A stretch of DNA of 64,000 nucleotides from a virus. The DNA lies in IMG/VR virus record IMGVR_UViG_3300031673_009915. One strand, written 5' to 3'. Shown here piece after piece: positions 2,771-61,249 of this stretch. The translations under genes were made by a program, and so were the position numbers. The notes under the pieces were generated by a model. That model was not told where the DNA came from. It saw only the letters and a program-made list of their open reading frames with translations, and did no database searches. Numbering within the stretch: the stretch's first letter is position 1; the number at the start of each line of letters is the position of its first letter.

Positions 2771-3367
2771 TTATTTACTCCAATACATACAACGAACTTT
2801 TTTTCCTGTATATTTTTTTAAATATTCATCAGTGTATTGAACATTTTTACCTTCTATATTTTTATAATTCATTTTTGCATCTCCAAAAGGATCATGACAG
2901 ATTTTTCCATTTTCATCAAATCCAATCAATAAAATTATATGTCCTCCGGATAATTTTCCTATTTTATTTGTTCCAATAATAACAGGGCCATATGTGTTTA
3001 TTACAGAATTAAGTATATCATAATTCAAATCACAATCATGAAATGTGATTTTTCCTTTTATTTCTCTTGCATTTAACCATTTTTCAATACCAGCTTTTTG
3101 TACTAACCACCATAAAGACGTTCGTCCTTTTATCCAATTATATTTTCTTTTTATTTGTTCTCCAATTCCAGAAAGGCCTATTGAAAATTCAATATCATCT
3201 AAATATTTTGCAAGTTCATCATCATCTTTTGCAATAATTTCATTACAAAAATAAGACATAAACATCCAGGCGGATGTGCTGAAACATTGCCAATACGCTT
3301 TGAATTTTCCATTAAAATCTTTATTATCTCTCTGACTATTATAATCAATATTCAAAAGTATTCCCAT
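2771..3367 (-). CDS. putative endolysin, papain-like (C39-like) cysteine peptidase
   Basis: 198 aa with a Q-C nucleophile context (AYWQCFSTSAWMF) and a downstream His (GGHIILLIGFDENG). It is the last gene of the late operon, next to the holin-like ORFs. Confidence 0.5.
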   Translation of the reverse strand: MGILLNIDYNSQRDNKDFNGKFKAYWQCFSTSAWMFMSYFCNEIIAKDDDELAKYLDDIEFSIGLSGIGEQIKRKYNWIKGRTSLWWLVQKAGIEKWLNAREIKGKITFHDCDLNYDILNSVINTYGPVIIGTNKIGKLSGGHIILLIGFDENGKICHDPFGDAKMNYKNIEGKNVQYTDEYLKKYTGKKVRCMYWSK

Positions 3368-3376
3368 TTTATCCTC

Positions 3377-4540
3377 CTATCTACTATATGAAGCAATAAA
3401 TGAACAGTGATTTGGTTTATCAATAGCAACTCCATTCGTATGAGCTCTTATTACACTCCCCTTAATTAAATATCCACTCCAGGAGCAAGAACCTGCCTCT
3501 ACTCCTGAATCAGCCGTGTCTTCACACAATCTATTTGCAGACACAAAAGTATCATCATGTATACTTAGATTATTTTGAGTAGAATCTTTTGAAATTCCTA
3601 AATATAATGTTGATGTTCGTGCTCCTGTATGCGTGAAAGTATATATACCAGATTTGTTAATGATAAATGTCAATCCTTCAGTATTTCCATTATATCCCGG
3701 ATGATTGTGAGTAAATAAATTTCCAAAACTTTCAACTTGAGTATTAAAACGTATGATACAGGTATCTACTGATCCATATCCATTATATATATTGAATGTT
3801 GTCTGACAATCTAATTTTTCATGTGTTATTTCCCATTTAGCAGAACTTGAACAAGCCAATAATTTTAATAAATTTTGAAATTTTGGTAATTGTATTTCAG
3901 TTAATAAATCTTGTGTTATTTCATCACTGCCTTCTCTCTGTATAGTCATTATATTTGATCCGCCTTGTGCAGCATGAAAAAACTCATATTCCTTTTCATA
4001 ATTATCTGCAAGTGTAGGTAAGTTAATAATGATATTACCACCTGCTGTGTCTCCAATATATTTCTGATATGTCTCTCCATCTGTTATAGTGTATGGAGAA
4101 TCTGCATTAGTAAGATATTTTACTTTTGTAAAATTATTAAAAATATTCCATAATTTATTCATGTCTGCTCCATCACTCATCCATTCCGTATATTCATTTT
4201 CAATAAGACCTACTGTGATAGATTCAATAGCGATATTTACCAAAAAAGCACTCAAATTTATTATGAATAATTTTTTTCCTTCAGGCAATGATCCTGAAAT
4301 TGTGACAGTAATTCCAGCACTAGGATCAGATAAGATCACCACATTGGTAAAATATGTATCCAAATTTACTGAACCTGTACTAATTATTTTTAGACACACA
4401 TCTCCGATATATTTTTGAAGCAATAGAGCCGTAACCGTTTTGTCTCGATCCTTTCCTGTTCCTCTTGTTGCCCAAAATACATCAGCGTCTTCTAAAGTTG
4501 TTGCAACCGGAAAATCCGGTATTGTAATTGTGTTTGCCAT
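3377..4540 (-). CDS. tail fibre / receptor-binding protein
   Basis: 387 aa, the terminal gene of the baseplate block. The C-terminal half is beta-rich (..GIYTFTHTGARTSTLYLGISKD..) and looks like a jelly-roll tip domain by eye. Confidence 0.55.
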   Translation of the reverse strand: MANTITIPDFPVATTLEDADVFWATRGTGKDRDKTVTALLLQKYIGDVCLKIISTGSVNLDTYFTNVVILSDPSAGITVTISGSLPEGKKLFIINLSAFLVNIAIESITVGLIENEYTEWMSDGADMNKLWNIFNNFTKVKYLTNADSPYTITDGETYQKYIGDTAGGNIIINLPTLADNYEKEYEFFHAAQGGSNIMTIQREGSDEITQDLLTEIQLPKFQNLLKLLACSSSAKWEITHEKLDCQTTFNIYNGYGSVDTCIIRFNTQVESFGNLFTHNHPGYNGNTEGLTFIINKSGIYTFTHTGARTSTLYLGISKDSTQNNLSIHDDTFVSANRLCEDTADSGVEAGSCSWSGYLIKGSVIRAHTNGVAIDKPNHCSFIASYSR

Positions 4541-15761: not shown

Positions 15762-16679
15762 TTATATTCCATCTCCAAATGCTACAGATTGAGGATAATA
15801 AATAATTATTCCACCATATTCTGCATGACAAGGAATTATATACTCCATACCTTTTAAATTTGCTTCAAGTTGTTCAAAAGATTGTGGTATTTCCATTGTT
15901 AAATTATTTGGGTCTTTTACATAAGCCATTATTCTATCTGTTGCTCCTGCACCTGCTCCAGCAAGTTCATCAACAATTTCAATAGATACTCCTGGATTAT
16001 TATTTTTAAAATAATTTAAAATTGTATTTGTATTTCCATCTGTCATTCTTCGATCTTTTATATCATTATACTGAGTTCGTGCAATAATTATCTGTGATAC
16101 ATCTTCTCGGCCTTTTGTTGGAACAGAAACTGCACTCATCAAACCCGTTAAATCTTGTATTATTTCATCGGGTGTTTTAGTACTCCAAGTTTTAAAAGTA
16201 GAAGCTCCGACGGGAATTGTAAATTCAGTTATTCCTGGATAATTAAAAAATCCCTGAATATTAAAATTCTCATCTCCATACCAAGCTAATTTATCTTGAA
16301 GTTCTTCCATTGCTCTTTTTGCAGCATTAGCTTTTCGTGTATTTAATTGTACACCAGCCATTTGTGCTCTTCTAATCTCTTTCAAATTATAACCATAACT
16401 ATCTCCCATAGAGCGTACTTTGCTCTGATTTTCTACCGCATACACATCTACGCGTGGAAAATCTTCTGCATAATCAGCAATAATTTTAGCTATTCCGGCC
16501 CGGCTCCAAGAATACCAAATTATAAAATCTGCTCCTGCATTTACTTCTGTACTAACAGGAATAAGCATTTTAGCTTTTAAATTTCTATATTTAACATCAT
16601 ATGTTCTAGATTTAATATATTCAAGTTGTCTCTTGAAAAAAGCTGTCTCTGCCGCATCTAATCGCATTACATCTTTCAT
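15762..16679 (-). CDS. major capsid protein (HK97-fold, DUF2184-like)
   Basis: 305 aa. N-terminal LDAAETAFFKRQLEYIKSRTYDVKY pattern. Located after the scaffold and decoration genes. Confidence 0.8.
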   Translation of the reverse strand: MKDVMRLDAAETAFFKRQLEYIKSRTYDVKYRNLKAKMLIPVSTEVNAGADFIIWYSWSRAGIAKIIADYAEDFPRVDVYAVENQSKVRSMGDSYGYNLKEIRRAQMAGVQLNTRKANAAKRAMEELQDKLAWYGDENFNIQGFFNYPGITEFTIPVGASTFKTWSTKTPDEIIQDLTGLMSAVSVPTKGREDVSQIIIARTQYNDIKDRRMTDGNTNTILNYFKNNNPGVSIEIVDELAGAGAGATDRIMAYVKDPNNLTMEIPQSFEQLEANLKGMEYIIPCHAEYGGIIIYYPQSVAFGDGI

Positions 16680-16697: not shown

Positions 16698-17444
16698 TTA
16701 AAATAATCCTGAATAAGTCATTTCTTTTCTAATACTGTCTATTTCTAATCGAACAAGAGCAGAAGCAGACGCATTACTTTTATATATAGCTGGTAACTCA
16801 ATTCCTGAATTAAACCATTTACCAAAATTAGCACCCGCTGTGTTATATACATAAGCTTCATCGTTCGCCTTTACAGTAGTTCCGGATTCAACCCAGATAC
16901 CGCCTTCTGTACACACATTAAGAGCATCATATTGTTCATATAATCCCGAAGAATTCTGCGCAAACACAGAAACTCCTAAAAATACTTGACTAGAATCATA
17001 TGTAATAGTTGTAGTAGGCTGACTGCCTGCTCCTGTTGTTACACTTGATACAGTTGCCTCCTGTCCTTTTGTCTGAATTAAAATAGTTAAATTATTTACA
17101 TCATTTGCATCTAGCACCGCACTAACTCCATCAAGAGCGTTAATAGCTGCTGTGAGAGCATTTATAGTAATAAGATGAGTTGTATCAAATACAACAGGAT
17201 CAGTATCTATTTCATTTACAGTCACAACCGTACTATTATCTGCTATAAATTCTGTACTATATACTATTTTTCCAGTATCAAGATGGAAATTATATGCGTG
17301 AATTTCATCTCCTATATAACCAAATACAGGCTTAGCAAATTCAATTCCATTTTCTTCTGCACAGGCCCATCCCCCCTCAATTTTTCTATTGAGTCCATAA
17401 AGGAGACCTTTTATCGCAGTATCAATATAATCATATGCTGGCAT
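16698..17444 (-). CDS. head decoration / accessory capsid protein (putative)
   Basis: 248 aa, located between the scaffold/protease and major capsid genes. Confidence 0.4.
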   Translation of the reverse strand: MPAYDYIDTAIKGLLYGLNRKIEGGWACAEENGIEFAKPVFGYIGDEIHAYNFHLDTGKIVYSTEFIADNSTVVTVNEIDTDPVVFDTTHLITINALTAAINALDGVSAVLDANDVNNLTILIQTKGQEATVSSVTTGAGSQPTTTITYDSSQVFLGVSVFAQNSSGLYEQYDALNVCTEGGIWVESGTTVKANDEAYVYNTAGANFGKWFNSGIELPAIYKSNASASALVRLEIDSIRKEMTYSGLF

Positions 17445-17447: not shown

Positions 17448-18926
17448 TTATTCCTCCTCTTTTATTTTATTTGATTTCCATAAATTAGATTCATACGCAA
17501 CTTGTTTCTTATAAGCATCTCTAGAATCTAATTTATTTGAGCCTTCGTTTTCGATAGAATCTTTTTTGAATATTTCTGTAGATACTTCTTTTTGTATTTC
17601 TTCCAATCTTTCTACAGCTCCATCAAATCGAATGTTAACATAATTTTCATCTGCATTATCCAGTTTTTCTTTTGCTGTTGGATACAGTGATAAAATTATT
17701 TGTTTTTTGATTTCCAATTCAGTAGAATCTTCTTTGATTTCGATGTTTGCTTTTTTTGCAGCATCTAAAACTTGAATTCTTTGTTTGATAGAATCTTCTA
17801 TCAATTGAGGTATAGATTTTTTCAAATCTTCTGTCTCATTTTTAATTTGTTCAGAGTCTTCTTTAAATTTATCTCGCTCAGCTTCAAGTACAGTCTTATC
17901 CTTTTTAAAAGATTCTTCTTTTTCAAATAAATCATTTTTTAATTTTTCATTTTCTTCTTTCAAAAGAGTAAGAGATTGAATAACTTGAGGTTCTGCTTGA
18001 TAATCTACTCCATCAATCTTAATAATTTTGAAATTCATTGAATTTCCTCCTTCATCATTATAAATTTTTTTAGATTCCATTATTCCTATATTAACAGAAT
18101 CAAATTTCATCACAGCGGCATCTCCTGCCCTGCCTTTTTTGGTCATTGCAATATGATTGTATTTTACGTCTCTTTGAATAGCATCATAATGGACACCCAT
18201 CCAATTACCAGATTTATTTTCAATTCTTGCTGCATATCCACAACTCAAAGCTCTCTTTCCTCCTTGAGCCTCTCCTATAGCATTTCCATCTGTAATAATA
18301 ATAGGTGTAGATATATGATAAGAATCATTTTTAACATCTTCCCCAGAAAATCCTATTTGAAATTGTCTAATGTTATCCCCATCAATTTTTTCTGCTTGAT
18401 GTTCGTTTATTATAGGTAACATTTTCAGACTATTTATAGAATCCGGTTTAAAAATTTCTTCCGGAGGACGAAGTTCATAAGTAATAGACCCGTCCATTTT
18501 TCTATAAGGAAAGACTCCAATATTTGTGACAATGGCCCTTCCTTTTAAATATCCTTCCGGTGTCAATTTAAATTTTTCTACCATCCCTCCTTCCAAAGCG
18601 TTTTCGCAAGGCCACTCCATTTGATCTATTCTTTCAAACATAATTTCATCAATTCGATTCTCATAAAAAGTATCTATTTCATCTATTTTTTCACTTGCTT
18701 CTTCAAACATAATAGATTTTAAATCATGTTCTTCTAACCATTTTTTTGCAGCTGTAACAGTAAATTTTTCTTTCGGAAATCTATAAGCTTGTACAGTAGA
18801 AGAAGTCTCCCCTTTTAATTTTCCACCATACAACATAACACCATTCGGTAATGTTTCTAAAACAACAATATTTTGAAATTTATTTGGTTCTATTATTCTT
18901 GCTGCATGAAAATTTGGATAAGGCAT
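17448..18926 (-). CDS. prohead protease/scaffolding protein (DUF2213-like) with coiled-coil C-terminus
   Basis: 492 aa with ..GVFPYRKMDGSITYELRPPEEIF..LPIINEHQ.. The C-terminal 150 aa are K/E-rich coiled coil, typical of scaffolds. Confidence 0.6.
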   Translation of the reverse strand: MPYPNFHAARIIEPNKFQNIVVLETLPNGVMLYGGKLKGETSSTVQAYRFPKEKFTVTAAKKWLEEHDLKSIMFEEASEKIDEIDTFYENRIDEIMFERIDQMEWPCENALEGGMVEKFKLTPEGYLKGRAIVTNIGVFPYRKMDGSITYELRPPEEIFKPDSINSLKMLPIINEHQAEKIDGDNIRQFQIGFSGEDVKNDSYHISTPIIITDGNAIGEAQGGKRALSCGYAARIENKSGNWMGVHYDAIQRDVKYNHIAMTKKGRAGDAAVMKFDSVNIGIMESKKIYNDEGGNSMNFKIIKIDGVDYQAEPQVIQSLTLLKEENEKLKNDLFEKEESFKKDKTVLEAERDKFKEDSEQIKNETEDLKKSIPQLIEDSIKQRIQVLDAAKKANIEIKEDSTELEIKKQIILSLYPTAKEKLDNADENYVNIRFDGAVERLEEIQKEVSTEIFKKDSIENEGSNKLDSRDAYKKQVAYESNLWKSNKIKEEE

Positions 18927-18928
18927 TT

Positions 18929-19273
18929 TTACACCTCCGTTTTTATATAATCAAATGCTTCTTTAATATTTTCACATAATGTAACATATTTACTGACTTC
19001 CATCAGCTGCATCACAGCTATCAATATTTTTCTAAATGGAGGAATTATATAAATTTTAATCATTTTGCAATGTGACAATAAAACTCCTATTCCTGTACTA
19101 TTTAAATATTCTACAAGAGACATATCAATTATAAATGTTTCGTATTTACCAACATTGCACCGCATAAAATCATCAAACTGAGTTGCTGTAATCATATCAA
19201 TATCTCCTCTCAATCTTACAATTATAATCCTGCCAATTATTTCAATTTTAAAATTTTCATTGTCCATGTACAT
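18929..19273 (-). CDS. STAS-domain protein (anti-sigma-factor antagonist, SpoIIAA/RsbV-like)
   Basis: VRLRGDIDMITATQFDDFM ... FIIDMSLVEYLNSTGIGVLL aligns by eye with SpoIIAA IRLTGELDHHTAETLKQKV ... IVLNLEDLSFMDSSGLGVIL. The Ser corresponding to the phospho-acceptor is present (NSTGIG). Confidence 0.65.
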   Translation of the reverse strand: MYMDNENFKIEIIGRIIIVRLRGDIDMITATQFDDFMRCNVGKYETFIIDMSLVEYLNSTGIGVLLSHCKMIKIYIIPPFRKILIAVMQLMEVSKYVTLCENIKEAFDYIKTEV

Positions 19274-19667
19274 CCTCTTTTGTTTCTATTTTTACAATAG
19301 AAGGTTTTTTCATATCTTCTATTATCTCTTTTATACTTAATTTATTCATAAATTGCATAAAAGCAGCTATACATGTAAAAATAAATATAAGAGCTCCGAC
19401 AAGCCATTTTATCAATTTATCTCTTTTTTGCATTTCTTTTACAGCTTCTTTGATTTCTTTAATATCATTTTTTATTTCTTCTTTTTCTTCAATCACAATA
19501 TCATCATTATCTATACTCATTCCAATCATTTTTAAATCTTCTAATAAATGCTCGTCAATTCTTCGTTTTGAAATTTTCATAGCGTCTCTATATTTTATAA
19601 GAACATCTCTTGCTTTAGAATGCATTCCTATTAACTTGTCAATAAGTTCATATATATCTTCCATCAT
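19257..19667 (-). CDS. coiled-coil protein with C-terminal TM helix
   Basis: 136 aa. Acidic/lysine-rich helices followed by LIKWLVGALIFIFTCIAAFMQF. Confidence 0.5.
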   Translation of the reverse strand: MMEDIYELIDKLIGMHSKARDVLIKYRDAMKISKRRIDEHLLEDLKMIGMSIDNDDIVIEEKEEIKNDIKEIKEAVKEMQKRDKLIKWLVGALIFIFTCIAAFMQFMNKLSIKEIIEDMKKPSIVKIETKEDVHGQ

Positions 19668-20039: not shown

Positions 20040-20191
20040 CGGATATATCCTATTAGTTGATAATATTTTTCAATCATTCCTTCAAGTTTGTATATCTTAT
20101 CAATAGTTCCTTCTAATTGTATTCCATTATAAACAATGCTAATGTCTACAGGTTCTGTTATAATTCCGTCTGTTGAAATACTTATACTCAT
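20030..20191 (-). CDS. hypothetical small protein (53 aa; hand-found)
   Basis: MSISISTDGIITEPVDISIVYNGIQLEGTIDKIYKLEGMIEKYYQLIGYIRCE. ATGA overlap with the 796-aa gene upstream, and an overlap with the downstream gene. Confidence 0.4.
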   Translation of the reverse strand: MSISISTDGIITEPVDISIVYNGIQLEGTIDKIYKLEGMIEKYYQLIGYIRCE

Positions 20192-22578
20192 ATCTTTTTC
20201 ACCTTATATTCAATACAGGTGCCTTGCGTTGGATGAAAAGAAGCATTTATTTGATATGTTGCTATTGCGTTCGTGTCCAAATCCATATCAGCAGAACTGG
20301 GATATATCCTTATTTTTCCTTCCGTCAATAATTTATTTACATAATTTGTATCATATATTCTAAGATTTTCTTTAACCAATCCTGTATTTCTGTGAATCAT
20401 TCCACCAAATGAGTTTTCATCTGCATGATCTGCGCTTAATTCATCCCAAACAGCGTCAGTAATCTTATCAATATCTGCTTGACTGATTCCTGCTTGTAAT
20501 TCTCCTGTCTTAGTTCCATTGTCATATATAGTACCAAGTCGAACATCGATTTCAAGAGGTAAATCCAAAATTCCTTCTTTCGTTAAATTGTCATAAAAAA
20601 TTTCATCTCTTACATCATTGATAATAGGAATATCTAACACACCTTCTTTATCGCCACCTGCGAATTTATAAGTTATCCCGTCACGCACATTAGAAATTCC
20701 CGGATCGGTGTAATCTGCTACTGCTTGCGTTGTAAAATTTATTTCAGTTCCTTCTAAAAGATCACCTAAAGGATTATAACAAAAAACTTTAACATAATAA
20801 GTTGTATCTGCATCTAAATTTTCGAGTGTAATTGAATGTCCCCATTTTTTCCATTCATATTCCCTACCGAAAAAATTAGTTTCAAAATTACAAAATATTG
20901 CCCCCCATTTATCCGGTTCCGGGATAGGAGTTTCATTATCATATTGATTTGATATTTTTCCATATTTTACAAAAGGAAGTCCAAAATGCCGTAATTGTTT
21001 TTTTACAAAATCAGCATTTACAGCACTATGCGCAAATGATAAATTTTCTTTAAGTGTTATTGAAATACCAGTATTGATAGAATCAATTTCACCTTCTTCT
21101 GCTCTTACTGTTCCAAATCCAATTTCAATAATTTCTTTTTCTTCGAAATCAGATGTATCTGCTATATATAATATTTTCTGTCCGACATTCGAATCTTGAT
21201 CAACTGTAGTTCCTGCATGACTATTTTTACAATCAAAACTAATATCTACCGAATGTGCTAAAAGATCATTAGTTTGGATATTATCACATTCTAAAAGTTT
21301 ATTTAAAGTAGACTTTGCGTTTGTTCTTGCTGATGTTAATCCTATGTATTGTTGAGGATTTTCTGTTGACGTAGTTGATTCAGAAATATCAATATTTTTA
21401 GGATCAGCTTGCAGTCTACCAGCAATATAATCATTGTCACTTGTTATATCTGTCGCTGCTAAAATATTAAATGCATAATTATATTTAGTTTCATTTTGTT
21501 TTGCATAAAAATCATTAAATTTAGAATAGATTGACATAGAATGAGCATATGTATTATTTATCTCTTTGCTTGTTGTTGAAAAATTTCTTGATAAAAATGT
21601 TATTCCAAGTGTGTCAACATTTGAACCCTTAGCCAGAAGTGCATCTTCATTTCGACTTGAAAAATAACTATCTATTAGAAATATTCTTTTGTCTGCATCT
21701 CCTCTTATGTTTGTCTCACTATCTGAATAAGATTCTTTAAAAATCGCATCTCTAACAATTTGTTTTTTAGCAGATAAAGAAGAGGCAAAATCTATTCCTC
21801 CCGTATTACAATTTTCAATCCATAATCGTTCAAACTCTTCTTCATAAATAGTATTAGAATTTCTATTAAAATATAATTTACACGATGAATGCGCCCCTTC
21901 ATGTAATAAATTTGATATTTTCACATTCTGTGTATCTGCTGAATAATTACCTCTATAAAAAAAACTTAATGCTAAATTTCTAGTCCGTATATGATGAATT
22001 TCTGAAAAGTTTCCTGTACCCGCAGAACCTGCAATTATAACTCCATAATTTGAGTCTATTAAATATATATAACTGAATTTAATAGCATTTGTAATACTAC
22101 TTTGAAAATAAATATATCCCCAAAATGCAGCTTTACCCTGTACTTCTATCTGATTCGGTTGAAAAGTAACAAGAGTTGTTTTAGATTTATTCCAACGACA
22201 TTGTACCGTATTTAAAAATAAAATTGTGTAATTCCCATCTAGATATATGTTAGCACTATCTTCTAATTCTGTTATAAGACCTGTACTAAGACTTAAATTA
22301 CCTACTATATGATCATTGTCTCTTAAAACTAAAACAATTTCATATTGACTTGTAATATCAGGAATTGTTAACCAAACAGCCGTTATAATAATAGTTGTCG
22401 CAGTATTAGATTGGATTTGTCTTTCTTGTCCAACCCCCAAACCTGCAATAATTCGCACTAAATAATTTGTTAAATTTGGCCAGTTGGCTGTAGTATCATT
22501 TAAAGATAAAGGACTATTTAATCCTATACTGAATCCTACCGAATTCGGATTAGTTAATACGCCTGACCAATTAGACAT
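20188..22578 (-). CDS. large virion-associated protein with FN3-like domain (putative receptor-binding/depolymerase-type)
   Basis: 796 aa. FN3-like strand pattern GHSITLENLDADTTYYVKVFCYNPLGDLLEGTEINFTT. The N-terminal half is repetitive beta-rich sequence. Confidence 0.55.
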   Translation of the reverse strand: MSNWSGVLTNPNSVGFSIGLNSPLSLNDTTANWPNLTNYLVRIIAGLGVGQERQIQSNTATTIIITAVWLTIPDITSQYEIVLVLRDNDHIVGNLSLSTGLITELEDSANIYLDGNYTILFLNTVQCRWNKSKTTLVTFQPNQIEVQGKAAFWGYIYFQSSITNAIKFSYIYLIDSNYGVIIAGSAGTGNFSEIHHIRTRNLALSFFYRGNYSADTQNVKISNLLHEGAHSSCKLYFNRNSNTIYEEEFERLWIENCNTGGIDFASSLSAKKQIVRDAIFKESYSDSETNIRGDADKRIFLIDSYFSSRNEDALLAKGSNVDTLGITFLSRNFSTTSKEINNTYAHSMSIYSKFNDFYAKQNETKYNYAFNILAATDITSDNDYIAGRLQADPKNIDISESTTSTENPQQYIGLTSARTNAKSTLNKLLECDNIQTNDLLAHSVDISFDCKNSHAGTTVDQDSNVGQKILYIADTSDFEEKEIIEIGFGTVRAEEGEIDSINTGISITLKENLSFAHSAVNADFVKKQLRHFGLPFVKYGKISNQYDNETPIPEPDKWGAIFCNFETNFFGREYEWKKWGHSITLENLDADTTYYVKVFCYNPLGDLLEGTEINFTTQAVADYTDPGISNVRDGITYKFAGGDKEGVLDIPIINDVRDEIFYDNLTKEGILDLPLEIDVRLGTIYDNGTKTGELQAGISQADIDKITDAVWDELSADHADENSFGGMIHRNTGLVKENLRIYDTNYVNKLLTEGKIRIYPSSADMDLDTNAIATYQINASFHPTQGTCIEYKVKKI

Positions 22579-23918: not shown

Positions 23919-24329
23919 ATGAAAAAATTTAATTTAACAATTTGTATATTATTACTTTTCTTACCTTATTTTATTAGTGCTAATAAACGCTCAACACAAT
24001 GGAGCAAGGTAAGAAAAGCATATTTAAATAGACAATCTGTTTGTGCTGTATGTGGAGAGAAATATGGATTGCAGGTACACCACATCAAACCTTTTCACTT
24101 GCATCCAGAATTAGAATTAGATAAAAGTAATTTCATAACTCTATGCACAAATAAGAAATTTAATTGTCATTTAAAAATAGGTCATGGAGGGAATTTCAGG
24201 TGGGAGAATCCGTTTATATATAAACATATTGAATGGATAAAAAAATGTAAAGGAGATATTACTTGTATGAAATCCGTTGCAAGACATATCAAAAAAATAG
24301 TAAAAAAATTTAATGGGGGTATGAAATGA
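23919..24329 (+). CDS. HNH endonuclease-domain protein with N-terminal signal peptide/TM
   Basis: CAVCG..VHHIKPF..NFITLC..CH is the HNH/Zn signature. The N-terminus MKKFNLTICILLLFLPYFISA-NK looks like a Sec signal peptide. Confidence 0.65.
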   Translation: MKKFNLTICILLLFLPYFISANKRSTQWSKVRKAYLNRQSVCAVCGEKYGLQVHHIKPFHLHPELELDKSNFITLCTNKKFNCHLKIGHGGNFRWENPFIYKHIEWIKKCKGDITCMKSVARHIKKIVKKFNGGMK

Positions 24330-24529: not shown

Positions 24530-24703
24530 TTATTTCTTAATTATACAATCTTTCTCTAATTCTGAAACAAATCTTTGACGAGATTCAGTTACTACATCTA
24601 CTTTATTAGATGTTCCATTTAATTTTATAGTCACACTTCCAAATTCTATTTGTTCAATTTCATTTTTAATATATTTCATTAAATTTTCTGTGATTATTCT
24701 CAT
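24530..24703 (-). CDS. small DUF2292/YezD-like protein
   Basis: Start trimmed to MRIITENL.. The ..IEFGSVTIKLNGTSNKVDVVTE.. pattern is YezD-like. The longer ORF would overlap the Mu-F-like gene. Confidence 0.45.
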   Translation of the reverse strand: MRIITENLMKYIKNEIEQIEFGSVTIKLNGTSNKVDVVTESRQRFVSELEKDCIIKK

Positions 24704-25695
24704 ATAACCCCTTCTATTTCTTGATCTATTTCTTTTAATAAATTTTCGAAAAAAGGAATAGCAGGACAACGACATCTTATTTCATAACCAGGATGAGTTT
24801 TGGGCATTTTTGCTGTTCGTTTTTTCCATGTTTTTCCATCATCACTGTGCACAGTTGAATCATCCCATCTACAAATCTTTTTGTGCATTAACCAGTGACT
24901 TGGAACAGCTTTGGGGTATTTTCCCCCCGGTTTTCCACGAACACGCTCGTCTCCTGCTGTCATCCATATATACATATCAATACCGGCATCTTCTTGTCTT
25001 CTCTGTGTTAATACTCCATTAAGTTTTCCTACTTGATCTCTTGCAATAAGTTCTGGACGAGCTTTATTAAATGTTTCAGTTATTTTTTTCAACTCTTCTA
25101 ACATTCCAGAACTTGTTTTTCCATATTGAACACCCTCACTAATCAATGTGTTTACTTTTTTTATATATTCATCTGGTAATGTTGTTATTAAATTATAATT
25201 AGTTTCTGACCAGGCAGAAATTACTTCTTTTTCCCAAGATTCAACTGGGACAAATTCTAATCCCATCATTCCTTTTGTTAATTTTATATATTGCTTTAAA
25301 TTCACTTCAGAAGAATCCATACCTATATTAGTCACCAATAATCGAATATCATTATTTTTCAATATATTTATAACATAATCTTTAGTGTCTTGTGTTAAAT
25401 TTTTCAAATCTTCTGGAAAAGCATCTACTCTATTATCACTTTTTCCTTGCAATCGATTATATTCATCAATCCATCTATTTAAATTATTTTTAATTTCCCA
25501 TGACATTCTGTCTGTTATGGAACGCATAAATTCTTTAATCTGTTTTACATATTGTCTTTCTATTGAAATAGGATATAACCATGTTTTTAATGCTTGACTT
25601 CGTGTAGATTTTCTACGTCTTGAAGACATTGTAAGTCTCTGCATTTTAATCAACTCTCTAAACATTGAACTATTTGTAAAAGGAGTTTTTGTCAT
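24700..25695 (-). CDS. minor head morphogenesis protein (Phage Mu F / SPP1 gp7 family)
   Basis: ..YIWMTAGDERVRGKPGG..SHWLMH.. and ..HPGYEIRCRCPAIP.. match the Mu-F C-terminal signature. The gene directly follows the portal gene. Confidence 0.75.
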   Translation of the reverse strand: MTKTPFTNSSMFRELIKMQRLTMSSRRRKSTRSQALKTWLYPISIERQYVKQIKEFMRSITDRMSWEIKNNLNRWIDEYNRLQGKSDNRVDAFPEDLKNLTQDTKDYVINILKNNDIRLLVTNIGMDSSEVNLKQYIKLTKGMMGLEFVPVESWEKEVISAWSETNYNLITTLPDEYIKKVNTLISEGVQYGKTSSGMLEELKKITETFNKARPELIARDQVGKLNGVLTQRRQEDAGIDMYIWMTAGDERVRGKPGGKYPKAVPSHWLMHKKICRWDDSTVHSDDGKTWKKRTAKMPKTHPGYEIRCRCPAIPFFENLLKEIDQEIEGVI

Positions 25696-26988
25696 TTATT
25701 TTTTCACCTCTTCAATTTCTTCTTCTTCTACAACGGGTAAAGAATGTGTTAATAATTCAGGAAATCGTTGTGTTCGGACCTCTTCTGGATCTAAAACCAT
25801 GTTGGCAATATATTTCTCATCTGTATTTGCTTGAAGATTTTCAATCTCAGCTTGTTCTTTTTGCGTTGGTTCCCATAATGAATTAAATGTTATTGTATAT
25901 TTTTCAGATGTTCCTGGATAAACATAACCACTAATTATATCAATCACTTTCTGTATTTCAGACTGTAATATATTCTTTCTCTTTACATCAATTTTATCAT
26001 AGTAATCTCTTATGTCAGAATCCCCCGTTGCATTCATTCCAGCAGGAGAACGTCCAAATAATTTTGTAACAGGTATACCGCACACGGAACTTAGATTCAT
26101 CATAGATCGATCAATTAAATCAGACAATCCAGAAACATTCACACTATCTCTTGTATAATCTTCTTTATCAGCATCCAGTAAAACAGCATTTATACTTGAT
26201 TTAGATAAATTGATTATATCTATTCTATTATAAATTTTTTTAAATGCTTCTGTTGTATTTTGTGCTAAAATTGAAGCAAGACCAGTTAATTTATATTTTC
26301 CAACACAAAATTCTAACATTAAATTAGCAACACCCTTTTCTGTCATTGCGTAATTACTCAGACGGTCCCATATTCTTTGAATAGTAGAAAATCCCCAATA
26401 ACGATATTGAAAATCTAAATTTCCAGAATCACTTGACATCTCTCCATAAAATACAATACATCTACTCTTATGCACATTTTGCAATTGACCATTTCGTAAT
26501 CTCACATGAAAATATTCAACATCTTCAAAATATTCTGAATTTGGATCAGTAACAAAATCAGAAGACTGCAATTCTATTCTAGCAGCACTAAATACTTTTA
26601 ATCCTATTATTTTATTTATGTTTGAAGACAATTTATCTTCTAATTTTCCTCGGTCTGTAACCATAACAATAATTGAACCTCGATACAACCGAGCATATTT
26701 CAAAGCTTTATTAAAAACTTGTTCTATTTTTAATCGATTTTGTTCTTTTTCTATTTTTTGATCTTTGTCATTTTCAATAATCCATCCTGTTCTCGTCATA
26801 TCGTTTGCGTAAGTATCTATTATAGCCGCACCAAGACCCTCTCCGTCATAAATAAGAGACAATGTTTCATCATCAAAAATTTGGTATGATCCAAATTCGT
26901 TATGTTCTGTTTTATCTGAATTTGATTTTCCAATTCCAGCGATGAGATTTACCCAGCCATCTTCTTTTAATTGTGTATTTTTTATCAT
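25696..26988 (-). CDS. portal protein (DUF1073-like)
   Basis: 430 aa with ..CGIPVTKLFGRSPAGMNATGDSDIRDYYDKI.. Located between TerL and the Mu-F-like gene. Confidence 0.8.
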   Translation of the reverse strand: MIKNTQLKEDGWVNLIAGIGKSNSDKTEHNEFGSYQIFDDETLSLIYDGEGLGAAIIDTYANDMTRTGWIIENDKDQKIEKEQNRLKIEQVFNKALKYARLYRGSIIVMVTDRGKLEDKLSSNINKIIGLKVFSAARIELQSSDFVTDPNSEYFEDVEYFHVRLRNGQLQNVHKSRCIVFYGEMSSDSGNLDFQYRYWGFSTIQRIWDRLSNYAMTEKGVANLMLEFCVGKYKLTGLASILAQNTTEAFKKIYNRIDIINLSKSSINAVLLDADKEDYTRDSVNVSGLSDLIDRSMMNLSSVCGIPVTKLFGRSPAGMNATGDSDIRDYYDKIDVKRKNILQSEIQKVIDIISGYVYPGTSEKYTITFNSLWEPTQKEQAEIENLQANTDEKYIANMVLDPEEVRTQRFPELLTHSLPVVEEEEIEEVKK

Positions 26989-26991: not shown

Positions 26992-28470
26992 TTATCTCCT
27001 CCACAATGCTTCCGATGAATCATAAAATAATCCAGAATGTTCTAAACATCCAGTTAATGCATCAGGAGCATCATCATGTTTATTTGCTTTAAAATTCTTT
27101 TTAAATTTTAATAAATCCCGGGCAAATTCAACCCATCGCCCTGTCCAATTCATTGGAAAATAAACTATTCTTTGTAACTCTGAAGCATTAGTTAATATCC
27201 TACTTTCCTTATTTGTATTCTGAAAATAAGGAATAATTGTATGTTTAAAACCAGATAAGCGATCTACATTTCTTCCAAATGCCCTTCCACCACTATTACT
27301 TTCAATAACCGCTTCTCCTGTTCTATTTTTATTAAACATAGTAGCTACTTTTTGTTCTGTTATAGTATTATCTTCCTGTGTATATATAATATCAGTGATA
27401 TATATACAATTATCTTCACATATATTATAACAAATAGAACATAAATAATCTTTTCCTGTATCAGCCACATCTGTATAATTATTTCTTGACAAAATATTTG
27501 GCATCTTTACATAAATATTAAATCCTACATAAAGTAATCCTTTTTTCGGAATAGGGTCTCCTTGATAAAGACTTTCAAATTTTTCTGAATCTAATACTCT
27601 GTCTATTTTCAATTTTTCTAAACTGTGTCTATTTGACCATAACGGAACATTTAAATCTCTTAAATCAAATTCATTTTTTTTGCATTCAGAAGTAGCTATA
27701 GCAGGGAAATTGATTTTATACCATATATCCGAATTAAGATTTTCTAATTGTTCTTTTTTACATAATATTTCAACATTCTCTTTTTTTTCTATATATCCAA
27801 TCAAATCTTCTTCATGCCATCTCGTAAACACAATCAATTCTTGACTTTGATTGTGTAATCTTGTTCTTACAACGGAAATATACCAATCAATCACAGATTC
27901 TCGAATAACAGGAGAATTACCTTCTGCATAATCTTTGTATAAATCATCCATAATCATCACATCAACTAAATTACCTGTCAAAGCACCACCTCGTCCTACT
28001 GCTCTAAGAATTCCTTTATGATTAACTATTTCAAATTCATCTTTTGTACGAGCATATTTATTATATGATTTTTCTGTAAATTTTGTTTTTGAAATGGTTG
28101 TTTTAGGAAAAAGATTATTATAACCTTGTTCAGCTATAATTCTTTGAATCTGTGTACTAAATTTTCTAGCAAATGTTGTGGAATAACTAGATACTGTTAT
28201 TGCAAGATCGGGATTTATTCCGAGCATAAATGCAGGTAATCGTCTAGAAGATTGATCGCTCTTACCATGCTGAGGAGGCATCGTAATAATCAATTTTTTA
28301 ATTTTTCCCTCAGCAAAATAATTTAAAATATTAGAATAATTGATGTGAATAAATGTGTCTTGATACGCTGGCATCATGTATTTTGTAAAATTCAAAAAGT
28401 GATTTCTTGCCAAAATTCTTCTTTGAATTTCTGTTTTAATTTTATTTTGAAATACTGGAATTGTTCCCAT
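26992..28470 (-). CDS. terL: terminase large subunit
   Basis: 492 aa. Walker A-like PPQHGKS, Walker B-like VDVMIMDDLY, and a C-terminal nuclease-like region. Canonical position upstream of the portal gene. Confidence 0.85.
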   Translation of the reverse strand: MGTIPVFQNKIKTEIQRRILARNHFLNFTKYMMPAYQDTFIHINYSNILNYFAEGKIKKLIITMPPQHGKSDQSSRRLPAFMLGINPDLAITVSSYSTTFARKFSTQIQRIIAEQGYNNLFPKTTISKTKFTEKSYNKYARTKDEFEIVNHKGILRAVGRGGALTGNLVDVMIMDDLYKDYAEGNSPVIRESVIDWYISVVRTRLHNQSQELIVFTRWHEEDLIGYIEKKENVEILCKKEQLENLNSDIWYKINFPAIATSECKKNEFDLRDLNVPLWSNRHSLEKLKIDRVLDSEKFESLYQGDPIPKKGLLYVGFNIYVKMPNILSRNNYTDVADTGKDYLCSICYNICEDNCIYITDIIYTQEDNTITEQKVATMFNKNRTGEAVIESNSGGRAFGRNVDRLSGFKHTIIPYFQNTNKESRILTNASELQRIVYFPMNWTGRWVEFARDLLKFKKNFKANKHDDAPDALTGCLEHSGLFYDSSEALWRR

Positions 28471-37157: not shown

Positions 37158-38186
37158 TCATAATTCTCCTCCACATAATGGACATATAGAATATGAATTT
37201 AATTCCTTTTCAGAGACAGAAATTTCTATATCAATGTCCGTTTCATCTTCTAAAAAAGAATAATATGATTTTATCAATATTGTTAATTCTTTAATATTTT
37301 CATTTAAAGCATCTCTGGATTTTAACTGAATTAAAATATCATTTAAATTAGTTTCAGCTTTTTCTATATCAATGTCCGTTTCATCTTCTAAAAAAGAATA
37401 ATATGATTTTATCAATATTGTTAATTCTTTAATATTTTCATTTAAAGCATCTCTGGATTTTAACTGAATTAAAATATCATTTAAATTAGTTTCAGCTTTT
37501 TCTATATCAATGTCCGTTTCATCTTCTATATTTTCAAATTCTTGTGTGTAAAATTCTAATGTACTAATCTCATAATTTAAATTAACACATGTTTCATACA
37601 TAAATTTTAATAATTCAAATCTCTGTTTAGCAGGTGTTAACCAAAAATATACTGTAATTTTATTTTGTAATATTTCTATTTCATTTTCATTAAATCTTAT
37701 TTCTTCTTTGATCTCTCTAATTTTAGAATCAATATTTTTCATGGCTAAATCTATGAGATCAAGATCCACAATTTCATTAAGATATCGACTTACTTCACCA
37801 GAACTTTTAGATAATAAAAAAGGTTCTTCTAATTGTTTTTGAATATTTATTTCAGACATATTACATAAATTTTTTACATCTTCCGGCACATCAAAACCAA
37901 ACGCATATAAAAAATTTTCATTTATTTTATAACTATTTTTTTTATTTGTTTTTATCCTATCAATTATATTATTATCCTCAAATTGAATTTCAATTATTGT
38001 ATCCCCTCCAAAATTATTACGAAAAGAATCTCCTTGAGGTTTATTTTCAATAAGCCACCTTATAGCTCTTATAATTGCAGATTTTCCAGAATCACTTTGT
38101 CCTGTAATAATATTGATTCCTTTATCAAATTCTAAAAAAGAATAAATATGACTTTGAAAATTTTGTATTTCTAATGAACGAATCAT
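37158..38186 (-). CDS. Rad50/SbcC/T4 gp46-like ATPase, N-terminal lobe + coiled coil, ending at the zinc hook
   Basis: MIRSLEIQNFQSH..INIITGQSDSGKSAIIRAIRW (Walker A), a long coiled coil, and a C-terminus ..ICPLCGGEL-stop (CxxC hook). An alternative upstream ATG lies at 38222. Confidence 0.7.
   Translation of the reverse strand: MIRSLEIQNFQSHIYSFLEFDKGINIITGQSDSGKSAIIRAIRWLIENKPQGDSFRNNFGGDTIIEIQFEDNNIIDRIKTNKKNSYKINENFLYAFGFDVPEDVKNLCNMSEINIQKQLEEPFLLSKSSGEVSRYLNEIVDLDLIDLAMKNIDSKIREIKEEIRFNENEIEILQNKITVYFWLTPAKQRFELLKFMYETCVNLNYEISTLEFYTQEFENIEDETDIDIEKAETNLNDILIQLKSRDALNENIKELTILIKSYYSFLEDETDIDIEKAETNLNDILIQLKSRDALNENIKELTILIKSYYSFLEDETDIDIEISVSEKELNSYSICPLCGGEL
37225..37526. repeat. perfect 138-nt (46-aa) tandem duplication, about 2.2 copies, in the Rad50 coiled coil
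   Basis: Unit starts at 37225, 37363 and 37501. Peptide FLEDETDIDIEKAETNLNDILIQLKSRDALNENIKELTILIKSYYS occurs twice. Confidence 0.9.
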
Positions 38187-38196
38187 TTTTGACCTT

Positions 38197-38664
38197 TTAT
38201 CTTTTATAAATTCTTCTTCCATATTCAGCTATAAGTAAAGCCTCAGCAATACCATCTTTTAATCTACCTCTTAACCCATATAACTGATCTTTAATTTCAG
38301 GAAATAGATTTATACAAGTCGATACTGATCGTTTTTTATTCGCATTTAAATTAAATTCTTTTTTCCAAACCCGGGGACGAACTTCCTGGAAAGGAATTTT
38401 TAAAAATTTCAACACGGCCTTTAATTCTCCATATCCCTCCCCATAATTAAAAACGGACGTAACTCCCTGTTTTGGCATTGGTTGTGCTTTTTCAATTATA
38501 CAAAAAGATTTTTCATTTAATAATATATGTGTTTTTAAAAACGTAACAATAGTCATTGCATCAATATTTTTATTGCACAAAGGCATTTCCAATAAAAATG
38601 TATCTTCCATTTTAAGCACAGCAATACCTCCTTTTTGCCCCGGATCAATTCCCATAAAGATCAT
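38197..38664 (-). CDS. RuvC-like Holliday junction resolvase
   Basis: MGIDPGQKGGIAVL.. N-terminal catalytic motif and C-terminal ..DGIAEALLIAEYG. Confidence 0.7.
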   Translation of the reverse strand: MIFMGIDPGQKGGIAVLKMEDTFLLEMPLCNKNIDAMTIVTFLKTHILLNEKSFCIIEKAQPMPKQGVTSVFNYGEGYGELKAVLKFLKIPFQEVRPRVWKKEFNLNANKKRSVSTCINLFPEIKDQLYGLRGRLKDGIAEALLIAEYGRRIYKR

Positions 38665-39932: not shown

Positions 39933-40958
39933 CTATAAATTAACAAAAAGCGAACATTCTTTTTTTAAAAAACAATCTTTACATTCATCATATTCATCAT
40001 AATCTAATCCAAAATCATTTCCATGAGGACAAGATTTCTTTTCTTTTTTCTTTTTAAATTTTTTAATCCGAGTACTAACTTCTTCCTTTGATTCTTCTTC
40101 TACTTCTTCCTTTGATTCTTCTTCTACTTCTTCCTTTGATTCTTCTTCTACTTCTTCCTTTGATTCTTCTTTTTTCTTTTTAAATTTTTTAATCCTGACA
40201 TTAGATTCTTCTGATTCTTCTTTTTTCTCTATTGCATAATAAATATCATATAATTCTTGATATGAAGGTACATATAAAAGAGAATCTAAAGAATAACTTT
40301 CTTTCAATAAAATATCCTCATCATATTGTTCTTCTCTAGAAACAAATTTCAAAGCAACCGGTTCTTTATATTCTATTATTTTTCCTTTTCTAGTATAAGT
40401 TTTTAATTCTCCAACAAAGTCTATAGAAGAACCTTCTTCTAAATCAGCGAAAGTCACAAGTTCTTCTCCTTTTCTTGCTTTCATTCTTAAATTTTTTTCA
40501 ATCCAGTTAAAAGTAACATCAAATATTTGAATTCCTTTTTCTTCTTCATCAAGATCAATTACATTATAAAGAGTTCGATGCCTTGGCCATAATTTTTTTT
40601 CGCTTTCTTCTTCCCCTTCTTCTTTATATCGATACATTTCTTCACATACAGGACAAGATTTTCCAAACATTCTTTGTAGACATAAATATTCTTTATTTTC
40701 AATTCCTATATTATTATGAGTATAAATTTCAAGCACATAATCTCCTGAACCTATTTCAAGTTTTTTTGAATGATTTTTAGTTTTCACAATATAAGGAATT
40801 ATGTCTATAAGATTTTCTTCTTTAATTTTATAGAATGAAACCCCTTCAATTTTTTTCTTATCAAAATAATCTTTAACATAAATTCTATCTTTATTATTAA
40901 CATTATCTTCTATTTGTTGTCTTAAACTTTCTTTAAAATCATTTTTTTTACAAATCAT
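39933..40958 (-). CDS. T4 gp32-like ssDNA-binding protein with acidic repeat tail and C-terminal Cys cluster
   Basis: ..IDIIPY..LEIYTHNNIG..CLQRMFGKSCPVCEEM..LWPRHRTLYNVIDL..IQIFDVTFNWIEKNL.. parallels gp32 IRFLP..ILVNHGF..CSSTHGDYDSCPVCQYI..KRKTSYWANILVV..VFKYRFGKKIWDKI. Confidence 0.6.
   Translation of the reverse strand: MICKKNDFKESLRQQIEDNVNNKDRIYVKDYFDKKKIEGVSFYKIKEENLIDIIPYIVKTKNHSKKLEIGSGDYVLEIYTHNNIGIENKEYLCLQRMFGKSCPVCEEMYRYKEEGEEESEKKLWPRHRTLYNVIDLDEEEKGIQIFDVTFNWIEKNLRMKARKGEELVTFADLEEGSSIDFVGELKTYTRKGKIIEYKEPVALKFVSREEQYDEDILLKESYSLDSLLYVPSYQELYDIYYAIEKKEESEESNVRIKKFKKKKEESKEEVEEESKEEVEEESKEEVEEESKEEVSTRIKKFKKKKEKKSCPHGNDFGLDYDEYDECKDCFLKKECSLFVNL
40079..40170. repeat. 24-nt tandem repeat, about 3.8 copies (EESKEEVE units) in the SSB tail
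   Basis: cttcttcctttgattcttcttcta repeats at 40079, 40103, 40127 and 40151. Confidence 0.9.
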
Positions 40959-41489: not shown

Positions 41490-42182
41490 TTATCCTCCTA
41501 TAATATATTTATAATATTCTTTAATTTGCTTTTGAGTGTAATTATGTTTTCTCATTGTTTTTTTATAATTCTCTAACCACCAATCTTTTTGCTCAATTAT
41601 GCAACCGATTTGAATTTGATCTTTCCATTTTATTACGTGATGTTTGCTTCCATTTATTTGTATAATTGGAGTATCTGTTATTATGTCTTTTAAATTTGTA
41701 TAAAGTAAATTTGTTTTGTTAAAATTCACACCACGTAAATCCGCTTTTCCAAAATTTGCACTTGCACAAATCGCTTCTTTAAAATTTGCATTCCAACAAT
41801 TTGCACCCTCAAAATTAGCACTCCAACAATTCGCACCATTAAAATCAGCTTCACTACAGTCAGCATCTTTAAAATTTGATTTGATACAATTTGATTCCTT
41901 AAAATTTACATGCCAACAATGTGATTCTTGAAAATTAGCATTCCAAGAATATGCTTTCTCAAAATTTGCACTTCTACAAACTGATCCTTGAAAATTTGCA
42001 TTTGCACAAATTGCTTTTTGAAAATCTGCATTTCTACAAATCGCTTCTTTAAAATTTGCACTCCAACAATTTGCTTCTTGAAAATTAGCATCTTTACAAT
42101 TTGCTTTTTGAAAATCTGCATTACGCAAATTATTTCCTTCAAATATTATCGCACCTTTTTTATTTTTTATTATTCTTTTCAT
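41490..42182 (-). CDS. pentapeptide-repeat protein, paralog 4
   Basis: Same N-cap (MKRIIKNKKGAIIFEGNNLRNADF), pentapeptide tract and C-domain (..KYIIGG) as the other paralogs. 1-nt spacing from paralog 5. Confidence 0.9.
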   Translation of the reverse strand: MKRIIKNKKGAIIFEGNNLRNADFQKANCKDANFQEANCWSANFKEAICRNADFQKAICANANFQGSVCRSANFEKAYSWNANFQESHCWHVNFKESNCIKSNFKDADCSEADFNGANCWSANFEGANCWNANFKEAICASANFGKADLRGVNFNKTNLLYTNLKDIITDTPIIQINGSKHHVIKWKDQIQIGCIIEQKDWWLENYKKTMRKHNYTQKQIKEYYKYIIGG

Positions 42183-48927: not shown

Positions 48928-48930
48928 TAC

Positions 48931-49641: not shown

Positions 49642-49650
49642 TCCATCCTC

Positions 49651-50547: not shown

Positions 50548-50556
50548 AAGTCTCCT

Positions 50557-54367: not shown

Positions 54368-54423
54368 ATTTACCTTCTTTTTTTATTTGTTTTATTTTAA
54401 AATATTTTTAGCATTAAGAACAT

Positions 54424-54495: not shown

Positions 54496-54501
54496 ATAAA
54501 A

Positions 54502-61242: not shown

Positions 61243-61249
61243 AAAGTTT

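Follow-up and report, generated by a model that had tools for sequence, protein, structure and literature searches.

A phage-borne STAS protein at the edge of the head genes and a phage-encoded SpoIIE-type phosphatase: a candidate kinase-less half of a partner switch

What use would a bacteriophage have for an anti-sigma factor antagonist made alongside its capsid proteins? The question is raised by a 64,000-nucleotide stretch of viral DNA (IMG/VR record IMGVR_UViG_3300031673_009915; the whole of this stretch is called the window below), in which a short open reading frame (ORF) among the head genes encodes a single-domain STAS protein and a second, distant gene encodes a membrane-bound phosphatase of the SpoIIE type. 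The window has a GC content of 27.4% and is nearly the whole of a 64.5-kb phage genome, which also occurs on contigs from several metagenomes, its samples including JGI 3300031565/66/78 and SRR8554512. In bacteria, partner switching, built from a STAS antagonist, a serine kinase and a PP2C phosphatase, is a principal means of gating alternative sigma factors, biofilm formation, secretion and, by recent evidence, anti-phage immunity, and phages are known to bring sigma and anti-sigma factors of their own. Our reading, held tentatively and with somewhat less than even confidence, is that the STAS protein acts as a working antagonist which the phage phosphatase keeps dephosphorylated, so that a host switch would be held in one state during infection.

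The head-locus ORF encodes a SpoIIAA-like STAS protein

The following features define the protein.

18929-19273, minus strand: single-domain STAS protein of the SpoIIAA/RsbV class (Pfam, AlphaFold2, Foldseek and an orthologue at the same position)
19097-19099, minus strand: codon of Ser59, at the phospho-acceptor position and first residue of helix a2 (alignments and AlphaFold2 model)

The ORF comprises 114 codons, and its product matches the Pfam STAS family PF01740 with 43.0 bits (E 4.2e-11; gathering cutoff 22.6) over residues 8-106 and model positions 2-106 of 106. The precomputed annotation of a public copy likewise assigns PF01740 to the protein, which is the single STAS that hidden Markov model searches find in the whole window. 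A phmmer search against the PDB matches anti-sigma factor antagonists only, the best being T. maritima TM1442 (E 3.3e-6, residues 7-106 aligned), and the best NCBIfam match is TIGR00377 (anti-sigma factor antagonist, E 7e-12). The AlphaFold2 model, built on 51 homologues, reaches a predicted local distance difference test score of 94.7 and a predicted TM-score of 0.87 and has the canonical element order b1-b2-a1-b3-a2-b4-a3-a4. With this model Foldseek returns 32 PDB matches at E<=1e-3 with top TM-scores of 0.73-0.83, led by RsfB (8ih8), SpoIIAA (1th8, 1tid and 1h4y), RsbV (6m36), 4qtp, TM1442 and TM1081 and including SpoIIAA-SpoIIAB complexes; the STAS domains of YchM, MlaB and SLC26 also match the fold, less well.

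Ser59, within the motif LNSTGIG, aligns with the serine of the DS(A/S)G motif in TM1442 and with SpoIIAA S58 and RsbV S56. It is the sole invariant column in two alignments (A1 and A5), helix a2 begins at residue 59 in the model, and the G-D/E-I/L-D motif preceding helix a1 is kept. The C-terminal third of the protein is divergent, with four residues fewer between a2 and b4. A first-pass annotation of the window had named this ORF a STAS homologue with the phospho-acceptor position retained in NSTGIG; profile scan and structure prediction bear out the first point, the Pfam threshold being passed and the fold being SpoIIAA-like, and the alignments with the TM1442, SpoIIAA and RsbV serines argue for the second. 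In domain, fold and key serine, the STAS assignment is correct.

The phage encodes a sensor phosphatase, which a related phage pairs with a STAS gene

The same annotation had placed a SpoIIE/RsbU-type phosphatase elsewhere in the window, and this too was confirmed.

57003-58694, plus strand: membrane sensor phosphatase, seven-transmembrane (7TM) region plus SpoIIE-type PP2C domain (Pfam, catalytic motifs and an orthologue on contig L012)

The N-terminal 7TM region (residues 12-221, about 57036-57665; HisKA_7TM, PF16927, 35.6 bits) is joined by a coiled linker to a C-terminal SpoIIE PP2C domain (residues 362-558, about 58086-58676; PF07228, 109.8 bits against a cutoff of 25, E 2.2e-31), in whose translation all four metal-binding motifs can be read intact (GGDYYD, GDVSGHG, YTDG and KDDVT). 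The gene lies between those for helicase and primase in a plus-strand replication operon. Hundreds of cellular SpoIIE-family phosphatases, linked to 7TM or HAMP regions, share about 50-57% identity with its catalytic half; many of them are enzymes of metagenome-assembled genomes (MAGs) named RsbU or SpoIIE family, and many come from Spirochaetota MAGs. NCBIfam additionally records weak similarity of the PP2C domain to SiaA and RssB. Among PF07228 phosphatases, those that have been characterised (SpoIIE, RsbU/P, HsbR, BtrU and SypE) have STAS proteins as their targets.

The only close full-length relative of the phosphatase, 54% identical, is encoded on a 3.6-kb contig (L012; JGI 3300035701, Ga0373625_0118803) from a related phage, whose helicase is 79% and primase region 75-80% identical to those of the window and which shares the same pentapeptide-repeat family. 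On L012 the helicase gene is followed by the 7TM-PP2C gene, an overlapping STAS gene and a 68-aa homologue of the window gene at 58691-58891. The L012 STAS is 115 aa long, overlaps the phosphatase end, passes the Pfam STAS model at 31.8 bits and also has Asn-Ser at the phospho-site position. Phosphatase and STAS therefore form an operon in the lineage of this phage, and their neighbourhood independently supports a functional pairing of the two products. The possibility that the window has another STAS gene at its own phosphatase locus was ruled out: its counterpart of the gene beyond the L012 STAS is a 66-aa gene placed directly after the phosphatase, so that the window has no STAS at this site.

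We then consider what is missing from the switch. The Pfam scans took in ORFs of 50 aa or more, except in the block of tail genes from tape measure to sheath (about 9.4-14.8 kb), for which the precomputed Pfam annotations of an identical contig served. No window ORF matches a HATPase_c or HATPase_c_2 kinase in these scans, none matches a sigma factor (Sigma70 family), an anti-sigma factor or another output domain, and a local filter-free phmmer search of the window with two RsbW-like domains found no kinase, in agreement with the first-pass annotation on both kinase and sigma factor. Of a partner switch, the phage thus has antagonist and eraser, and neither kinase nor target.

The STAS gene is coupled to both neighbours within the late module

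The STAS gene sits in a contiguous minus-strand late module, which in transcription order begins with the small terminase gene and continues as follows.

26992-28470, minus strand: large terminase
25696-26988, minus strand: portal protein
24700-25695, minus strand: Mu-F-like head morphogenesis protein
19257-19280, minus strand: 5' junction of the STAS gene, with ribosome-binding site (RBS), two ATGs and the stop of the upstream gene (sequence read directly, ORF table)
18924-18940, minus strand: 3' junction, with GGAGGTG, STAS stop and protease start (sequence read directly)
17448-18926, minus strand: DUF2213 prohead protease/scaffold (Pfam PF09979, 130 bits; PHROG 530, head maturation protease, E 4e-77)
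16698-17444, minus strand: cement protein
15762-16679, minus strand: major capsid protein

About 5.7 kb of poorly characterised genes, including one for a 796-aa protein, lie between the Mu-F-like gene and the protease gene. E217-like contractile tail genes close the module, and the window outside it holds replication and nucleotide-metabolism genes. The first-pass annotation had the STAS gene directly after the scaffold/protease gene; this order is reversed, since on the minus strand the STAS gene is immediately upstream of it. The overlap with a late gene that it described is real, and the overlapped gene (19257-19667) is the preceding one in transcription rather than the next.

At the 5' junction, an RBS (AAAGAGG, 19280-19274) precedes two candidate starts, at a spacing of 0 nt from ATG 19273 and 6 nt from ATG 19267. 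Because of this AAAGAGG-ATGTAC-ATG arrangement, ATG 19267 is the likely start; the ORF of 114 codons exists as described, and a protein of 112 aa, which is also the length in the public gene call, is the likelier product. The upstream 136-aa gene ends at TGA 19259-19257 and overlaps the STAS gene by 11-17 nt. At the 3' junction, the RBS of the protease gene (GGAGGTG) falls inside the final STAS codons, and the STAS stop (TAA, 18931-18929) is separated by 2 nt from the protease ATG (18926-18924). Translation of the STAS gene is coupled to that of the genes on either side. Between 15762 and 23650 the minus strand has no terminator-like site; a scan for promoter and terminator consensus sequences returned counts at shuffle level, which are uninformative in AT-rich DNA. 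The 11-17-nt overlap, the 2-nt gap, the embedded protease RBS and the lack of a terminator-like site make co-expression with the late head genes likely, in line with the earlier proposal that the protein is made late with virion proteins.

A chimeric assembly or host contamination was excluded, as contigs from several samples agree in gene order and the GC content at third codon positions is phage-like in both genes (0.235 for the STAS gene and 0.147 for the PP2C gene), their composition matching the phage (window GC 0.274). The gene directly upstream of the STAS gene (19257-19667, minus strand) encodes a 136-aa coiled-coil protein with one hydrophobic segment. Four genes upstream, at 20188-22578 on the minus strand, lies the gene for the 796-aa protein, which has a weak FN3-like match only.

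The STAS gene is a lineage-specific insertion beside the protease gene

The closest relative of this locus is found on three 2.8-kb contigs (L014 and L015, from ERZ27247916 and JGI 3300032053, and L024), where the protease is 74% and the capsid N-terminus 93% identical to those of the window. The ORF running into the protease start on these contigs is the C-terminal half of an orthologous STAS, which reads NSTGLGVILSYCKLSRIFIIPP... and is 55% identical in amino acids to the window protein over 56 codons. The ratio of nonsynonymous to synonymous substitution rates over these codons is about 0.21, an approximate value as synonymous sites are near saturation; for comparison, the protease gene gives 0.15 and the cement gene 0.14. 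Should L012 and L014/L015 belong to a single phage, that phage would have one STAS gene linked to the phosphatase and another in the head module. A more distant relative, the 65-kb contig L016, has the same head and tail module with a protease 50% identical, and no STAS was seen within 21 kb.

A survey of protease relatives covered 80 metagenomic loci (468 kb), 65 of them with at least 400 nt of upstream sequence. L024 alone carries a STAS gene among the 80, none carries a PP2C gene, and the 65 other loci of this protease family that extend 400 nt or more upstream lack a STAS. The STAS gene is therefore a lineage-specific accessory insertion, under purifying selection and outside the conserved head-assembly set.

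Related STAS genes occur on other AT-rich, phage-like contigs

An exhaustive HMMER search of 1.84 billion representatives yielded 79 STAS matches at E<=1e-3, the best with 35% identity. A word-indexed protein search with the window STAS returned the protein itself only, pattern scans of IMG/VR with the STAS and with the phosphatase found nothing, and a metagenome scan with the 7TM region confirmed nothing, the collection seemingly being without samples that hold this phage. All near STAS relatives on a contig long enough to judge have a phage-like, AT-rich setting.

L005, 62.8 kb: tail-fibre genes, with Collar fibres upstream and a 1138-aa protein downstream of the STAS gene
L008, 8.4 kb: two STAS genes, 3-458 and 979-1320
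L019, 217.7 kb: RNA-polymerase beta-like gene and an intein-containing uracil-DNA-glycosylase gene, with a 698-aa Laminin_G_3 protein right after the STAS gene
L020, 48.7 kb: Peptidase_S74 fibre and virion structural protein, plus SbcCD-like genes that the window also has
L021-L023: STAS gene downstream of a 1100-aa Phage_fiber_2 protein

For L008 the phage-like call rests only on many small ORFs without family matches. The best-scoring STAS relatives with usable context are thus apparently phage-borne, and their genes tend toward the edges of late or fibre clusters, a classic 'moron' site. The residue before the phospho-serine is N or S and never D in 12 of the 12 nearest STASs, and D in 24 of the 39 others. 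The more distant matches include cellular proteins in which three STAS repeats are fused to an RsbW-like HATPase_c_2 domain; such fusions (P0007 and P0029) are among the nearest matches of cellular type. A neighbour-joining tree groups the window STAS with the phage-context STASs; bootstrapping with a cruder distance recovered exact clades in 0 of 60 replicates, and a monophyletic phage STAS clade is not claimed.

Two STAS genes can occur on one phage-like contig, either in tandem, as on L007 (422-843), or about 500 bp apart, as on L008, an arrangement that suggests expansion of the gene within phages.

For the host, a scan of genome contigs with the PP2C domain found only two MAG loci, from Myxococcota (57%) and Spirochaetota (48%). 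Both were rejected as hosts, having about 48% GC against 27% in the phage, and the only host clue is the identity of about 50-57% between the PP2C half and Spirochaetota and other MAG enzymes.

The reference sets searched contain no equivalent. No PHROGs v4 family matches the window STAS, the L012 STAS, the PP2C domain or Bacillus SpoIIAA/RsbV. Among 50,697 GenBank phage records, tblastn found no match to the window STAS at E<=1 and only six weak matches to the phosphatase. Five of the six fall in Staphylococcus and Listeria phage records that are short or unannotated, and we suspect these to be carried-over host rsbU. In BFVD the STAS fold matches three proteins only, all from giant eukaryotic viruses and none in phage entries. 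Full-text literature searches returned no report of a phage-encoded STAS or partner-switching component. Phage-encoded sigma homologues alter the host sporulation network (PMC9429907), and no phage-encoded anti-anti-sigma factor (STAS) or RsbU-type phosphatase was found in that paper.

A proposed half-switch acting on the host, weighed against alternatives

In the reading we favour, the phage acquired a functional STAS gene, which entered at the 5' border of the gene for the prohead protease/scaffold, and its product would consequently be made with the late head proteins. Together with the phage 7TM-PP2C it would constitute a kinase-less, output-less half of a partner-switching module. Unphosphorylated phage STAS would bind a host RsbW/SpoIIAB-like serine kinase or switch protein through its Ser59 surface, and would lose its activity when the host kinase phosphorylates Ser59. 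The phosphatase of the phage, expressed with the replication module, would remove this phosphate and probably also dephosphorylate host STAS proteins, locking the host switch in an 'antagonist-active' state that benefits the phage. Late synthesis may mean either late action or packaging into the virion ahead of a further round of infection. Which partners are bound, which way the effect runs and which regulon responds are inferred. The first-pass annotation suggested that the phage could capture a host anti-sigma kinase or other STAS partner and so rewire a stress, sporulation-like or motility regulon, which is pure conjecture.

Several observations weigh against this reading. The first-pass proposal of an antagonist supplied with its phosphatase holds in that both are encoded and L012 pairs a PP2C with a STAS, but in the window the two genes lie 38 kb apart on opposite strands, in head and replication modules that are expected to differ in expression time. 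BLASTP cannot align the L012 STAS with the window STAS, and because the two differ the pairing is backed in general and not for the window protein. No PP2C gene was found near other phage-borne STAS relatives in the up to 20 kb available, and the fibre and large late genes beside those relatives could point to a phage-intrinsic role. The TIGR00377 score is 45.1 bits, below the curated cutoff of 53.45, and covers residues 7-73 only, so that the curated antagonist subfamily is not formally reached; among relatives, P0002 exceeds this cutoff with 60.6 bits and P0013, with 53.1, is a marginal case. Conservation of a serine at a helix N-cap may also have a structural cause, and the matching kinase in the host is presumed.

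Some of these points favour the foremost of the alternatives, itself an unlikely one, in which the STAS alone acts on a non-kinase host partner and has no link to the phosphatase, the two genes being independent morons. STAS proteins with such partners include MlaB with its ABC transporter and the SLC26/YchM STAS domains with acyl carrier protein, and nucleotide binding is also known. The weaker fold matches to YchM-STAS, MlaB and SLC26 would fit this explanation, as would the unreached TIGR00377 cutoff and the 38 kb and different modules that separate the genes. However, the best sequence and structure matches are all kinase-regulated antagonists, the serine is invariant, L012 has a PP2C-STAS operon, and the near relatives include STAS domains fused to HATPase_c_2.

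Counter-defence provides a second alternative, which we also rate as improbable. In CapK-CapS and VapK-VapS-VapC, the latter a kinase-STAS toxin-antitoxin system, an enzyme resembling an anti-sigma kinase phosphorylates the equivalent STAS serine and thereby regulates phage defence; phosphorylation of the STAS repressor CapS by CapK de-represses immune operons, for example CBASS (PMC13373217). With this precedent for phosphorylation-controlled defence, the phage STAS might be a decoy that soaks up the kinase while the PP2C dephosphorylates a host STAS repressor, so that immune operons of the CapK-CapS or VapKSC type stay silent. A substrate mimic and an eraser without kinase or output are what the phage carries, the phosphatase is fast-evolving (it is 54% identical between window and L012, where the helicase is 79% and the primase region 75-80% identical), which is compatible with an arms race, and phage-like contigs carry those nearest STAS relatives whose context can be used. 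On the other hand, no PADLOC model meaningfully matches the STAS or the phosphatase, CapS has a DNA-binding part that the 112-aa phage STAS lacks, late expression would be odd for an anti-defence factor unless it is packaged, and CapK-like systems in the host are presumed. Equally doubtful is a broader proposal, by which the phage STAS proteins, a group not recognised before and in some phages paired with a sensor PP2C, would be a dedicated viral tool against host kinase-STAS switches, CapK-CapS-like ones included; in this phage the STAS would be made with the head proteins because it is packaged and injected, and would so be on hand from the outset of the following infection.

Translational coupling to the protease/scaffold gene raises the possibility, of similarly low probability, that the role is phage-intrinsic and late, with the STAS fold serving as a binding or chaperone module in virion morphogenesis, perhaps for a large late or fibre-like protein or the prohead core, and the phosphatase as an unrelated accessory. 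The closest STAS relatives adjoin tail-fibre or large late genes (L005, L019, L020 and L021), and the 796-aa protein with an FN3-like segment is encoded nearby in the window. Yet the neighbours vary, being the protease here and fibres or uncharacterised genes elsewhere; a site of moron insertion would show this pattern, and a dedicated chaperone would not. The 65 protease loci and L016 lack a STAS, which is therefore dispensable for assembly; the phospho-acceptor serine and kinase-facing motifs are strictly conserved; and literature searches found no precedent for a STAS assembly factor.

Least probable of all is that STAS and PP2C control the phage's own programme through an unrecognised phage factor, anti-sigma- or sigma-like, which would set the timing of late transcription or of lysis while the 7TM region senses the state of the envelope: many early ORFs lack a family assignment, the phosphatase has a sensor-type 7TM input domain, and a host partner switch controls the making of RcGTA, a gene transfer agent and phage-like particle (PMC3999984), but no window ORF gives a sigma, anti-sigma or HATPase_c signal, even with filters off, and a late-gene regulator would be unexpected inside a late operon.

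If the favoured reading of a host-directed half-switch is true, it would add a new layer at which viruses seize host signalling and would represent a compact, kinase-independent means to lock a partner switch on. It would also point to the STAS proteins of AT-rich environmental phages as a group open to direct testing.

Other features of the genome

Several further observations concern the late module and its relatives. A plus-strand HNH endonuclease gene (23919-24329), whose product has a signal-peptide-like N-terminus, lies within the oppositely oriented late operon. At the place equivalent to the accessory block with the 796-aa protein, L016 encodes a 696-aa Laminin_G_3 protein. Residues 1-80 of the protease/scaffold (MPYPNFHAARI...) recur with 50-67% identity at the head of many metagenomic phage proteins whose remainder is unalignable (L009-L011 and L041-L103, GC-rich contigs among them), and an IMG/VR pattern scan with the protease gave matches confined to this N-terminal domain, in unrelated GC-rich contigs. 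The first 80 or so residues thus look like a mobile N-terminal module.

The genome also encodes seven paralogous pentapeptide-repeat proteins in three clusters, together with an eighth ORF (252-500) that comprises the tail only.

252-500, 502-1134 and 1136-1903: pentapeptide-repeat ORFs, cluster 1
41490-42182 and 42184-42846: pentapeptide-repeat ORFs, cluster 2
61217-61909, 61887-62573 and 62500-63357: pentapeptide-repeat ORFs, cluster 3

The proteins share a non-repeat tail of about 55 aa (...INGSxHxVIKWKDQIQIGCIIEQKxWWLxNYKKTM..HNYT..QIKEYYxYI), and L012 also encodes a pentapeptide-repeat protein (2904-3440). Such an expansion is unusual for a 64-kb phage, and a role in DNA mimicry or anti-defence is our guess.

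By Pfam, the minus strand at 47700-51536 encodes a 7-deazaguanine (preQ0/queuosine-precursor) pathway.

48514-48927, minus strand: QueF-like
48931-49641, minus strand: QueC
49651-50547, minus strand: GTP cyclohydrolase I
50557-51189, minus strand: radical-SAM QueE-like
51174-51536, minus strand: PTPS/QueD

An adjoining 279-aa gene (47700-48539) has no Pfam match; by position it could encode a DpdA-like transglycosylase, implying modified genomic DNA. Elsewhere on the minus strand are genes for an 850-aa protein (43776-46328) in which uracil-DNA-glycosylase-superfamily, 3'-5' exonuclease and family A DNA polymerase parts are fused, an SbcC/AAA_23-like protein (37158-38222) with a near-perfect tandem duplication of about 47 aa (EDETDIDIEKAETNLNDILIQLKSRDALNENIKELTILIKSYYSFL) and a 341-aa protein (39933-40958) with an acidic SKEEVEEE repeat. 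A single tRNA-Met (CAT) gene (54423-54496, minus strand) lies in the gap between two divergent early operons.

Comparison with known partner-switching systems

The window protein is a new member of the STAS family, and a phage-borne STAS and sensor phosphatase without a kinase are a new form of partner switching, with no equivalent in the reference sets searched. The nearest comparison is with the Bacillus modules SpoIIAA-SpoIIAB-SpoIIE and RsbV-RsbW-RsbU/RsbP and with TM1442. Like their antagonists, the window STAS is a single domain of about 110 aa with the same element order, the G-D/E-I/L-D motif and a serine opening helix a2, and the phage PP2C, which belongs to the SpoIIE family, shares with Bacillus SpoIIE an N-terminal membrane domain. 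The window system differs in being phage-borne, in lacking a kinase/anti-sigma factor and a sigma factor, and in having its STAS and phosphatase genes non-adjacent. At the level of the protein, the window STAS has Asn rather than Asp before the serine, is four residues shorter between a2 and b4 than SpoIIAA/RsbV, and scores below the TIGR00377 cutoff.

HsbR-HsbA of Pseudomonas, BtrU-BtrV-BtrW of Bordetella and SypE-SypA of Vibrio fischeri likewise combine a PF07228 phosphatase with a single-domain STAS, and these systems, together with RbaV/W/Y of Rhodobacter, which acts on RcGTA, illustrate that the output need not be a sigma factor. All of them are chromosomal, include a kinase and have been tested experimentally, whereas the pair considered here is phage-borne.

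CapK-CapS and VapKSC resemble the proposed phage system in that a kinase-STAS switch operates at the equivalent serine with an output relevant to phage infection. They differ in being host-encoded and defensive, and in CapS, which binds DNA as a dimeric repressor, whereas the phage protein consists of the STAS domain only. Finally, the T4 anti-sigma factor AsiA, SPO1 gp28 and phage sporulation-type sigma factors provide a parallel in which phages interfere with host sigma control; those proteins are themselves sigma or anti-sigma factors, whereas the window encodes a STAS and an RsbU-type phosphatase.

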